Positions 917 through 28,598 of a stretch of DNA of 64,000 nucleotides are shown here, one piece after another (positions within the stretch are counted from its first letter, which is position 1; the number at the start of each line of letters is the position of its first letter). The stretch covers positions 11,347 to 75,346 of IMG/VR virus record IMGVR_UViG_3300037317_000025. One strand, given 5' to 3'. The DNA is from a virus. A program made the position numbers and the translations under genes. The notes under the pieces were generated by a model. The model saw only the letters and a program-made list of their open reading frames with translations. It was not told the origin of the DNA and searched no databases.

Positions 917-1393
917 TTACCAGAGCGATGTTTGCACGGGCACTGTGCCGACAAGCTGACCAGCTCCGTGCTTGCTGCGAGTACACGTCGCATCCTCAAG
1001 CCAGCGCTGTGCTCGCAGGTTGCGCGCCCAGATGTTGACCAGTGTCAGGATGTCCCGCTGGGCGCGGGCGTTCCGGTGTGTGATCTCGCCGCGCTCGTTG
1101 ACCTTTGCACAGACCGTGTATGCGCCGACCGGGTGCTGCGTGCATTCAACGGGCGACCAGCCCTCGACCGTGGTGGTCGAGAAGACGATCTCAGGATCGT
1201 ACATCAGATCGCCATTTTGTACAAATGTGTGAGCCACCGCGACAATACCGGGTGCCAGCACTTCGATTCGGAGCCGCTGGAAGCCGTCCATATCAAACTG
1301 AAGATACGCGCCGGGGAGTGCCAGATCAACGCCTTCGCGCCGTGCCAACTGCTCAATTGCCTTCTTGAACGTCTTACTTGCTGCGATTGTCAT
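917..1393 (-). CDS. DUF6908-like phage/plasmid protein
   Basis: AHTFVQNGDLMYDPEIVF motif; SD GAAAGGA; C-terminal QTSLW. Confidence 0.65.
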   Translation of the reverse strand: MTIAASKTFKKAIEQLARREGVDLALPGAYLQFDMDGFQRLRIEVLAPGIVAVAHTFVQNGDLMYDPEIVFSTTTVEGWSPVECTQHPVGAYTVCAKVNERGEITHRNARAQRDILTLVNIWARNLRAQRWLEDATCTRSKHGAGQLVGTVPVQTSLW

Positions 1394-1440
1394 TGTGTTT
1401 CCTTTCGTTATCCGCCAATGGCTTCGTCTTATAGTATACA

Positions 1441-1572
1441 TGGTGGAGGCGGCGGGAGTCGAACCCGCGTCCCGAACGTTGGTGCCCTGGCGGGCTGGAG
1501 CGTTTCGCGGCTGGTTCTGTGCGCCTTCCCGCTACCGCGCTCCCCGTCGCCCGGTCGATACCGAGCGCCCCC
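1441..1572 (-). ncRNA. miniature tmRNA-like RNA (tRNA-like domain, 132 nt, no tag ORF)
   Basis: 5' GGGGGCG-CTC-GGTATCGAC and 3' GGAC-GCGGG-TTCGACT-CCCGC-CGCCTCC-ACCA; 7-bp acceptor stem with G3.U wobble, T-arm, encoded CCA, helix 2 CGGGCG/CGTTCG. Confidence 0.85.
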
Positions 1573-1589
1573 TTACGGCATGCGACGCA

Positions 1590-1802
1590 TCACCGCACTT
1601 TCTCAAAGAGCGCCACACACTCCAGTGGCGTCCATTCCGGCACACCGAAGAAGTACCAGCCGCCTCCTGCCAACGGGCGCATCTTGTCCACTTTCGCCCA
1701 GGTGCGGGTATCGCGGGGCATTGTCGTAACCTCCACAATCTTGACGTGTACCATGTCCGTCGCCCGCTCCATCGTGCCATCCGGGGTAATCTGCTCTGCC
1801 AT
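1590..1802 (-). CDS. hypothetical early protein
   Basis: ATG with SD GAAAGGA directly downstream of promoter copy 2. Confidence 0.6.
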   Translation of the reverse strand: MAEQITPDGTMERATDMVHVKIVEVTTMPRDTRTWAKVDKMRPLAGGGWYFFGVPEWTPLECVALFEKVR

Positions 1803-1843
1803 ATCGGTATGTCCTTTCTGTATCATCAATTCCTTATACACTT

Positions 1844-1872
1844 ATTCTAGCACACTGGTAACACGGTGTCAA
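1844..1872 (-). promoter_or_regulatory. early promoter copy 2 (TTGACA-17-TAGAAT)
   Basis: consensus spacing, conserved flanks. Confidence 0.85.
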
Positions 1873-1964
1873 TAAGTATACAAAGGAATTTTGAGGCAAT
1901 TTTGTCGATACCGATGGACTATTCCGGGCGGTCGTTCGCTGCTGTGACCACCCGGAAACGCTGG

Positions 1965-2273
1965 CTACTGAGAAATAATAAACCAGTCCCGTGGGGCCAC
2001 AACGCCAATATCCAGAACCTTCACCACCAGGCCGGTCGTGTCGCGTGTGTTTACATACCGATGATAATCACTGTTGACCGCAAGGCCGATCATCCCTGGT
2101 TGTTCCGTTCCCCAGGCCCAGAACGGACTCCGGCTCTTGTCGTGCCAGACCTGCCAGCCAGGTACGTGGTCAAAAGCGGCGGCCATAATCTCCCGGATAT
2201 ACACCGGTGCTTGCTCGGTCACACCAGTAACATAGCCTATCGGGGTCGTTATGCGCGGGCTTACCTGTTCCAT
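1965..2273 (-). CDS. hypothetical early protein
   Basis: ORF with SD AGAAAGGAA after a GC hairpin. Confidence 0.6.
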   Translation of the reverse strand: MEQVSPRITTPIGYVTGVTEQAPVYIREIMAAAFDHVPGWQVWHDKSRSPFWAWGTEQPGMIGLAVNSDYHRYVNTRDTTGLVVKVLDIGVVAPRDWFIISQ

Positions 2274-27549: not shown

Positions 27550-28598
27550 AACCATACCACACTGATAATCACGTCACGCTCTACCACGGCGACGCGCTTG
27601 ACGTGTTGCGCACGTTGCCCGATGAGAGTGTGCATGCGGTGGTGACCGACCCGCCGTACTACAAAGTCAAAGAAGATGACTGGGATAGGCAGTGGACAAA
27701 GCGTGCGCATTATCTGGACTGGTTGCGCACAATTGTTGCAGAGTGGCAGCGGGTGTTGGTGCCAAATGGTTGCGTGTACTGTTTTGCGTCGCCGGATATG
27801 TCCACACACGTTGAGTTGCTAATTGCTGAGTATTTTGCCGTACTAAACAACATCAGATGGTACAAGCGCGATGGGTGGCACCAGAAAGCGCAAACCGATG
27901 CACTGCGGTCGTACCTGTCGCCCTGGGAGGCGTGCATTTTTGCTGAGCAGTACGGGAGTGATGGTATAGCACTCGGAGAAAGTCAGTATGCAAGCAAGTG
28001 CGATGCGTTGCGCGGGTTTGTGTTTGAGCCGTTGCGCGAATACCTGTCTGGTGAATTCAAGAAAATGGGGTGGCGCGGCGACGATTTGAATCGTATATGT
28101 GGTACTGCTTCGATGGCAGCACGCCACTATATAGCGCGTTCACAATGGTGTCTACCAACAAAAGAGCATTACAACTCGTTACAACGGGCAGCAAACGGGC
28201 AAGCACTCCGCTGCGAGTATGAAGCACTCCGCTGCGAGTATGAAGACCTCCGCTGCGAGTATGAAGACCTCCGCCGCGAGTATGAAGACCTCCGCCGCCC
28301 GTTTCAAGCGATGGCTCGCCACCGTGAGGACATGTGGCATTATCGCACAGTTGTACCGTATCCAGGCAAGCACCCGGCACAAAAACCGCTTGCAATGATG
28401 ATGGATATTATCGAGACAAGCACGCGAGTCGATGCGGTTATCCTGGATTGTTTTGCAGGCTCCGGCACAACCCTGGTTGCCGCTCGTGACCTGGGGCGGC
28501 GGGCTATCGGCATTGAGATGGACGCGGGGTACTGCGAGACGATTGTGGGCAGGCTCGCACAACAAGCACTGCCGCTGTTCGGAGAGGAGGAGGCGTGA
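27546..28598 (+). CDS. DNA methyltransferase (beta class)
   Basis: VVTDPPYYKVK, KHPAQKP, ILDCFAGSGTT. Confidence 0.92.
   Translation: MKPYHTDNHVTLYHGDALDVLRTLPDESVHAVVTDPPYYKVKEDDWDRQWTKRAHYLDWLRTIVAEWQRVLVPNGCVYCFASPDMSTHVELLIAEYFAVLNNIRWYKRDGWHQKAQTDALRSYLSPWEACIFAEQYGSDGIALGESQYASKCDALRGFVFEPLREYLSGEFKKMGWRGDDLNRICGTASMAARHYIARSQWCLPTKEHYNSLQRAANGQALRCEYEALRCEYEDLRCEYEDLRREYEDLRRPFQAMARHREDMWHYRTVVPYPGKHPAQKPLAMMMDIIETSTRVDAVILDCFAGSGTTLVAARDLGRRAIGIEMDAGYCETIVGRLAQQALPLFGEEEA
28201..28298 (+). repeat. 21-bp tandem repeat (about 4.5 copies) encoding LRCEYE(A/D) heptads
   Basis: unit CTCCGCTGCGAGTATGAAG(CA/AC). Confidence 0.9.

Follow-up and report, generated by a model that had tools for sequence, protein, structure and literature searches.

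The minus strand at positions 1441–1572 of the 64 kb stretch analysed here (the window) carries a real phage gene for a tag-less transfer-messenger RNA (tmRNA) of 132 nt that consists of the tRNA-like domain (TLD) only. The window lies within IMG/VR virus record IMGVR_UViG_3300037317_000025, a 75 kb sequence classed as linear and ~71% complete, from an uncultured tidal-flat phage. The gene is of the same kind as the TLD-only tmRNA of mycobacteriophage DS6A and belongs to a rarer, long form. It matches the Rfam tmRNA family RF00023 at 56.9 bits (E = 1e-19), where the curated gathering cut-off is 47 bits, and the alignment covers model positions 1–374 with 292 interior positions replaced by 53 nt. 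That both ends of a TLD lie within 132 nt had been predicted from the letters of the window without database searches (the original prediction). This is upheld by the Rfam match, by direct reading of the sequence and by R1, a covariance model made from the mini-tmRNAs of other phages, which within the window matches 1441–1572 only (42.9 bits, E ~1e-8).

All of the TLD elements are present and in the standard order, these being an acceptor stem with G3·U, a D-loop analogue of the form GG..UCGAC, helix 2a, a GAC linker, a T arm and ACCA. RNA positions are given as 1573 minus the window coordinate, and sequences other than the window carry L numbers. The parts of the RNA are:

1441–1572, minus: whole mini-tmRNA gene, 132 nt (RF00023 56.9 bits; R1 42.9 bits; breaks in contig homology)
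1566–1572, minus: acceptor 5' strand GGGGGCG, RNA 1–7; pairs 7/7 with 1445–1451, with G3·U
1554–1565, minus: D-loop analogue CUCGGUAUCGAC, RNA 8–19; UCGAC invariant in 53 aligned mini-tmRNAs, Rfam consensus GGaUUCGAC
1548–1554, minus: helix 2a 5' strand CCGGGCG, RNA 19–25; pairs with 1472–1478 and covaries
1538–1543, minus: helix P_b 5' strand GGAGCG, RNA 30–35; pairs with 1497–1502
1533–1537, minus: internal loop 5' side CGGUA, RNA 36–40; (A/G)GUA opposite GAA(A) recurs in L126, L288, L335 and L451
1529–1532, minus: helix P_c 5' strand GCGG, RNA 41–44; pairs with 1507–1510 (compensatory variant; minimum free energy fold)
1511–1528, minus: apical loop GAAGGCGCACAGAACCAG, RNA 45–62 (18 nt); GAAGGCGCACAG identical in L454 and L126, GCGCACAG in L066
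1507–1510, minus: helix P_c 3' strand CCGC, RNA 63–66; compensatory variant
1503–1506, minus: internal loop 3' side GAAA, RNA 67–70; GAAA or GAA kept in L454, L126, L288, L335 and L451
1497–1502, minus: helix P_b 3' strand CGCUCC, RNA 71–76; covariation, as for the 5' strand
1484–1495, minus: hairpin B, GCCC-GCCA-GGGC, RNA 78–89; minimum free energy folds
1472–1478, minus: helix 2a 3' strand CGUUCGG, RNA 95–101; as for the 5' strand
1452–1471, minus: GAC linker and T arm GCGGG-UUCGACU-CCCGC, RNA 102–121; T arm 100% paired, GAC nearly invariant
1441–1451, minus: acceptor 3' strand CGCCUCC, discriminator A and encoded CCA, RNA 122–132; sequence reading, single copy

The features named in the original prediction are all correct. 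The strand had not been stated, and is the minus; the second helix of the pseudoknot proposed for the interior fails, as described below. The interval between the two strands of helix 2a is 69 nt, compared with ~290 in a canonical tmRNA. None of the pseudoknots PK1–PK4 is found between the helix 2 strands, where the interior folds as nested helices. Across all frames the 132 nt contain a single stop triplet, UAG at 1534–1532; there is no resume codon with an in-frame stop, and no frame is closed by a stop after this UAG. The prediction of a tag-less, tmRNA-like RNA of alanine identity with no normal tag open reading frame (ORF) is supported. Searches with Infernal and ARAGORN had been suggested as a check; the Infernal-type Rfam match is above its cut-off, and ARAGORN made no call (0 tRNA and 0 tmRNA in the window). 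Because tmRNA calling by ARAGORN requires a tag frame, this silence is expected.

A chance origin of the tmRNA match is ruled out by a control locus, by shuffles and by the independent model R1. In Tunturi_4, a T arm and an unrelated 5' side within a protein gene generate a 132 nt RF00023 alignment of 41 bits, which was rejected as a mini-tmRNA since its 5' alignment is a chance one inside a coding gene. The T arm and acceptor 3' strand alone therefore account for ~41 bits, and ~16 of the window's 56.9 bits stem from the 5' half, which pairs 7/7 with the acceptor 3' strand and has UCGAC at the correct spacing. The 26 nt T-arm/acceptor string is present once in the window and in 0 of 100 shuffles. 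Three other identities were considered. The element is not a tRNA-Ala, as ARAGORN finds no tRNA in the window and the D arm is replaced by a tmRNA-type loop. It is not a two-piece (permuted) tmRNA, having the standard order and no match to RF04321 at gathering or at E ≤ 1. Nor is it a fragment of ssrA carried at an attachment site, as it has the 5' half as well, its 3' end occurs only once and there is no tyrosine integrase in the record.

The mini-tmRNA family

Mini-tmRNAs were sought in IMG/VR using a pattern in which GGGG..UCGAC was tied to GGUUCGANUCC..CUCCACCA at three spacings, giving 86 stretches at 34–64, 12 at 65–95 and 1 at 96–126. A structural filter required 7/7 acceptor pairing and at least 5/6 pairing in helix 2. 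Across viral, metagenome and genome scans 85 distinct filtered sequences were found, 56 of 79–90 nt and 29 of 103–140 nt. A looser scan fixed nothing on the 5' side but GGGG, and therefore gives an unbiased view of the alanine identity, which it supports: all 10 of its matches with a complete acceptor stem have U opposite G3.

Alignment A1, from which R1 was derived, is made up of 53 short members and includes neither the window nor DS6A. No variation is seen in it at UCGAC, in the T-loop core or at the GA of GAC, and GAC as a whole is nearly invariant. The acceptor columns of R1 are shifted by one, gaps at the 5' end having been misplaced by MAFFT. R1 recovers 93 members at E ≤ 1e-7, mostly in viral contigs, and about a third of these are long forms. 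In the alignment of these 93 members 95% of cells are paired, a figure that in the acceptor and helix 2 is partly so by construction because the filters demanded such pairing. Covariation is 0.676 compared with 0.137 when shuffled (0/500 reach the observed value), and it is 0.064–0.116 in a control in which the partner strands were slid. Positions in helix 2 show as many as six kinds of base pair. Pairing in the T arm is complete (100%), and its two outer positions, which the search pattern left free, show four kinds.

The covariation among phage homologs that had been proposed as a check is thus present, and it shows that the mini-tmRNAs behave as a selected family and not as decay products. 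A decaying deletion with no conserved pairing, which the original prediction had weighed against itself, is not what was found, since the family covaries and contigs related to the window show compensatory change. The mini-tmRNA is also less unusual than the original prediction took it to be, the kind being already published and common in viral contigs.

Pattern matches with a 7/7 'acceptor' in genome contigs (L214–L333) are mostly false, many being from Paenibacillus species, and few are real (L288, L306). A conserved tRNA tandem in Paenibacillus mimics a mini-tmRNA, in that one tRNA, with the 3' end GGGGGUUCAAGUCCUCUCGAC, precedes a tRNA-Tyr whose acceptor strand pairs with that end by chance. 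Tandems of this type are a trap for regex-based mini-tmRNA screens.

The interior of the long form

A nested three-way junction describes the interior of the window RNA better than does the pseudoknot proposed for it. With MAFFT and RNAalifold the interiors of the four closest relatives were misaligned, and no structure beyond the TLD and helix 2 was predicted; the interior was therefore compared by single-sequence folds and by eye. Its closest relatives are L454 (119 nt) and L126 (126 nt) and, more distantly, L066. The apical-loop motif GAAGGCGCACAG is common to the window, L454 and L126. Helix P_b is at the same place in these three with unrelated sequences (window GGAGCG/CGCUCC, L454 CCGGG/CCCGG, L126 GGCUGG/CCAGCC) and has an inner stem within it (GCGG/CCGC, GCGU/GCGC and ACG/CGU, respectively). 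A second subfamily, made up of L288 (from a Roseiflexaceae metagenome-assembled genome, MAG), L335 and L451, has different sequences and the same layout. Here P_b is AUAGGU/GCCUGU in L288 and AUAAGC/GCUUAU in L451, and the layout includes the (A/G)GUA opposite GAA(A) internal loop and a second small hairpin. Single-sequence folds of the window, L126 and L288 each give the nested layout independently. The equivalent of hairpin B is a short hairpin in L288, L335, L451, L066 and L113, and is missing from L454 and L126.

Contigs from four tidal-flat metagenome runs (DNA) were aligned to window positions 1100–2000, and some of these carry a variant of the window RNA with 13 differences. In this variant the substitutions 1530 C>G and 1509 G>C are both present, and between them they change the G43–C64 pair of P_c to C43–G64. 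In the same contigs 1500 G>A generates G33·U73 in P_b and 1478 G>A generates G25·U95 in helix 2a. A further change, 1536 C>T, is found in other contigs and makes GGUA read AGUA. Homology with the contigs that share the RNA stops at 1440–1443 and at 1572–1575, which are the predicted RNA ends. Natural variants are shown in this way to keep the helices of the window mini-tmRNA, which is under structural constraint.

The two helices of the proposed pseudoknot differ in their support. GGAGCG/CGCUCC is backed by covariation, whereas GCGGG/CCCGC is contradicted by the compensatory variant in P_c and was rejected, as GCGG pairs locally with CCGC and the CCCGC stretch is in a hairpin of its own. The nested model is preferred because the pseudoknot needs G43 to pair with C81, where no change is listed, and because the stretch around C81 forms its own hairpin. 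A loop–loop pairing between GGCG of the apical loop and CGCC of hairpin B is possible in the window and is unconserved in L126 and L454. AGUA/GAA is the consensus of the sarcin–ricin or loop-E bulged-G motif, to which the internal loop may correspond; this resemblance serves as a lead. When viral contigs were scanned for AGUA..GAA, no new member among the matches listed passed the structural filter.

Other long-form subfamilies have other interiors (L343:1109–1248, L359:4690–4825, L075:11474–11613, L367:495–622, and their relatives). These contain either a small hairpin with the loop GUGGUA, or a UAGCAAUCA motif, a covarying hairpin and a AAAAAGCCCACAG loop. The AAAAAGCCCACAG loop is reminiscent of the 3' side of PK1 in canonical tmRNAs. 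As the interiors differ among the subfamilies, the long forms look like several independent or fast-diverging designs.

Known systems and genomic context

One TLD-only phage tmRNA has been published, that of mycobacteriophage DS6A (Hudson, Lau & Williams 2014, PMC4131195; PMC11915505), and no further account of such phage RNAs was found in the literature. R1 matches DS6A (JN698994, L456) at 28479–28560, which is 82 nt, with 58.6 bits. Like the window RNA, that of DS6A is phage-encoded and unpermuted, has a full TLD (G3·U, UCGAC/GAC, T arm), lacks a tag frame and matches R1. It differs in being 82 nt rather than 132 nt, in having helix 2 closed by a short loop rather than a 69 nt three-way junction, and in ending ..CCACUA where the window RNA ends CCA. 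The hosts and phage types are unrelated. Routine annotation misses TLD-only tmRNAs: ARAGORN is silent in the window, and GenBank lists no feature at the DS6A site, which lies between gp33 and gp34 (DNA pol III) at ~10 kb from the integrase. DS6A also encodes an RtcB-like RNA ligase, gp76.

Canonical tmRNAs (RF00023), including the full-length tmRNAs of Streptomyces and of Bxz1-like mycobacteriophages, share the TLD and the start of helix 2 with the window RNA, which unlike them has no resume codon, tag frame, stop or PK1–PK4 and is ~130 rather than ~350 nt. The 2025 tmRNA database includes plastid forms without a coding sequence (CDS) and 2-codon tags in bacteria (PMC11915505). The CDS-less organellar tmRNAs of jakobid mitochondria and of Mallomonadaceae plastids (~65 bp; PMC11915505) also have a TLD without a tag frame; these are however the sole tmRNA and have their own SmpB, whereas the window RNA is an extra viral copy alongside the host tmRNA. 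Two-piece phage tmRNAs (RF04321) are likewise carried by phages, and their T arm and acceptor 3' strand are nearly the same as those of the window RNA. They differ from the window RNA, which RF04321 does not match, in their permuted order and normal tags ending AA.

Relatives found by blastn in GenBank phages matched only in the common T arm and acceptor, and the unannotated ones are permuted, tag-encoding tmRNAs. They are present in Xanthomonas phage Rb1 (L001), Bordetella phage PHB04 (L002), Alcaligenes phage QDWS595 (L003) and Tunturiibacter phage Tunturi_4 (L004), at about 1440–1880 of each locus, with the tags ANDDNFRPALRLAA, ANDDYIRAAA, ANDNVYAAAA and a 33 aa tag ending AVAA, respectively. 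The permuted tmRNA of Tunturi_4 directly follows a gene for an RF-1-domain peptide chain release factor (ArfB-like), such that two rescue tools adjoin.

Two bacterial assemblies (L460 and L462, the Roseiflexaceae MAG; L461 and L463) hold both a full-length tmRNA, of 158 and 127 bits, and a mini-tmRNA of 132–134 nt, which is presumably carried by a mobile element such as a prophage. The mini-tmRNA of the Roseiflexaceae MAG and the cell's own tmRNA are identical in the acceptor stem and at the start of helix 2a. This fits a mini-tmRNA that would be accessory to the cellular tmRNA and tuned to the host alanyl-tRNA synthetase (AlaRS) and SmpB. In the tidal-flat runs, contig depth over the T arm and acceptor of the window RNA (1441–1476) is raised ~20- to 50-fold. 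Bacterial tmRNA genes in the same metagenomes match 1441–1476 almost exactly, and therefore the 3' end of the host tmRNA is probably near-identical to that of the phage.

The features that flank the mini-tmRNA gene in the window are:

1844–1872, minus: sigma-70-like promoter TTGACA-17-TAGAAT with TG (extended -10), 11/12 match
1590–1802, minus: ORF of 70 aa that stops 17 nt ahead of RNA position 1; unmatched in Pfam and PHROG
917–1393, minus: DUF6908 gene, 158 aa, its ATG 48 nt after CCA with a GAAAGGA ribosome-binding site; PF21849, E = 5e-18

The promoter at 1844–1872 is likely to drive the operon that contains the mini-tmRNA. No terminator-like site was found between this promoter (1872–1844) and the next (880–852), so that with the promoter upstream the mini-tmRNA would have to be cut from a polycistronic transcript. 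Near-consensus promoters on the minus strand, TTGACA-17-TATAAT or TAGAAT with TG, are found at 852–880, 1844–1872 and 2690–2718, within 2 kb. Five promoter-like sites were seen where 1.3 are expected, splitting an array of small genes into short operons. The sole basis for placing the gene in an early region, as the original prediction did, is these sigma-70-like promoter cassettes. A weak promoter-like site at 1433–1462 on the minus strand (TCGACT-18-TATACT, 9/12) overlaps the T loop and CCA end and could give the DUF6908 gene a transcript of its own.

The record, ~71% complete, yielded no SmpB gene, tyrosine integrase, tRNA or second tmRNA. When the ORFs within 4 kb of the 93 family members were clustered, no gene of known function was a regular neighbour. 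The clusters represent lineage-level synteny only; the best of them (14 loci) weakly matches GP88/DUF7227, and the rest have no Pfam family. The window neighbourhood has just a DUF488 gene in common with L126. A tRNA is present within 2 kb of 14/60 short members and 5/33 long members, and of none in the case of the window copy.

Possible roles of the mini-tmRNA

G3·U70 in the acceptor helix is sufficient for recognition by AlaRS, and SmpB binds the TLD elbow and the D-loop analogue. We lean slightly towards a decoy role, in which an early, operon-embedded, TLD-only tmRNA would titrate SmpB and damp trans-translation. The host RNA polymerase would make the mini-tmRNA early, as part of a polycistronic transcript, from which it may be excised as tRNAs are, with RNase P making the 5' end and trimming back to the encoded CCA making the 3' end. 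It would then be charged by the host AlaRS and bound by the host SmpB, and possibly by EF-Tu. With no resume codon and no stop, it is presumably unable to complete trans-translation. It would instead compete with the host tmRNA for SmpB, possibly also for EF-Tu and for stalled ribosomes, and this titration would lower ssrA tagging and rescue during infection. The lack of an SmpB gene in the record, ~71% complete as it is, is counted in favour of this setting. The decoy idea, the leading one of three functions offered by the original prediction, agrees with what has been suggested for DS6A in the literature: PMC4131195 and PMC11915505, which both cite Mao et al. 2009, report strong inhibition of the endogenous tmRNA of E. 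coli by a TLD-only molecule like that of DS6A, whether or not it could be charged, with titration of SmpB as a possible cause.

Several points weigh against the decoy. The published inhibition was by a different, shorter molecule, and in E. coli. The record is ~71% complete, and an SmpB gene or a full tmRNA may lie elsewhere in the phage. Many phages instead carry full tag-encoding tmRNAs (PMC9004378), as was also seen here in GenBank phages. Pairing of the acceptor and helix 2 was a selection criterion, leaving pair diversity and the T arm as the unbiased measures of the family. The extra domain that the long forms conserve is left unaccounted for by a simple SmpB sponge, and reduced trans-translation has no obvious benefit for a phage.

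The mini-tmRNA may alternatively be productive, which is the strongest of the rival readings, though we consider it unlikely. The Ala-charged RNA and SmpB would enter stalled ribosomes and take over the nascent chain, and the peptidyl-RNA would be freed by drop-off and Pth or by ArfA/ArfB-type factors. Ribosomes would be released in this way, and proteins from damaged phage messages would escape the degradation tag. The alanine identity set and the encoded CCA are fully kept, and a pure SmpB sponge has no need of charging determinants, because the published inhibitor worked whether chargeable or not. The conserved extra domain of the long forms could recruit a factor, and the phage with a permuted tmRNA beside an RF-1-domain (ArfB-like) gene indicates that phages invest in rescue. 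Tag-free rescue would thus better explain the kept charging determinants and the extra domain than the decoy does. It lacks a stop or resume codon for normal termination, however, the ribosomal A site would be empty again after transpeptidation, and no release-factor-like gene, Pth or known partner is conserved beside the 93 members or the window copy. A more specific version, in which the long-form interior is an add-on that recruits a translation or release factor for rescue without a tag, or with a micro-tag of 1 to 8 codons of the sort suggested by L454, L288 and L335, is doubtful. The add-on would comprise the covarying helix, the sarcin–ricin-like AGUA/GAA internal loop, the conserved 18 nt apical loop and the small hairpin, which at least two subfamilies with no other relationship have in common, and the mini-tmRNA would then be a minimal rescue RNA of phage origin, unlike both canonical tmRNA and a passive SmpB sponge.

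It is improbable that the fold serves only as punctuation of the transcript, being a site of RNase P and 3' processing that splits the 70 aa ORF from the DUF6908 message with no further role. The position of the mini-tmRNA inside an operon, 17 nt past one stop and 48 nt before the next start, with no consensus-strength promoter of its own and no terminator, is what such a role would require. Any tRNA-like hairpin would do this, yet the UCGAC/GAC core and G3·U are conserved, and the same RNA has unrelated flanks in the contigs and quite different contexts in other phages.

Phage tRNA-like RNAs are able to counter tRNA-cleaving defences. The mini-tmRNA could in the same way absorb a defence by serving as bait for host nucleases or other factors whose substrates are tRNA or tmRNA, examples being anticodon nucleases and the recruitment of RNase R; tmRNA and tRNA fragments do bind RNase R in the AcrIIIA1 system (PMC11662646). 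This is a little less probable still, as the mini-tmRNA has no anticodon loop, the usual target of such nucleases, and no defence or anti-defence gene of known family is linked to it; no evidence is specific to the idea.

There is very little to recommend a micro-tag tmRNA, in which translation would resume at the GCG after GUA (RNA 41–43) and tags would be of 1–8 codons depending on lineage. GUA-GCG is common to the window, L454, L288, L335 and L451, and leads to a stop in L454:11319–11437(-) (GCG-UGA), L288:6478–6611(-) (five codons, UAG) and L335:2793–2925(-) (eight codons, UGA). In the alignments made here the resume codon of canonical tmRNAs is preceded, at a distance of a few nt, by UAA or UAG, and two-codon tags exist in bacteria (PMC11915505). 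The frame in the window, however, reaches the 3' end without a stop, L126 and L451 have no nearby stop in frame, and GCG is the 5' strand of the covarying P_c. A 1 nt indel in the L075 group shifts the would-be frame while the hairpins are kept. The short frames of L454, L288 and L335 could be chance or the remnants of micro-tags.

A non-functional relic, whether a full phage tmRNA in decay after an internal deletion or what is left of integration into ssrA, is disfavoured and hardly to be credited: phages that integrate into ssrA do carry its 3' end (PMC9004378), but in the window both halves are present and perfectly paired, the record has no tyrosine integrase or second copy of the 3' end, related contigs have the same short form with a compensatory change, and the family covaries.

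The concept of a TLD-only phage tmRNA and its leading interpretation as a decoy are already known through DS6A. What is new is the long form, with a covarying three-way junction common to at least two subfamilies, and the compensatory change seen within a population in the window RNA itself. The finding is at present solid but incremental. The class is widespread in viral contigs. Only one member has been described in print, and TLD-only tmRNAs are the simplest known viral way to touch bacterial ribosome rescue. Should the extra domain of the long forms recruit a factor, it would reveal a new way of rescuing ribosomes. If the mini-tmRNAs are indeed decoys, nature would have provided in them compact inhibitors of trans-translation, which is under study as a target for antibiotics, and they would give a handle on the role of trans-translation during phage infection.

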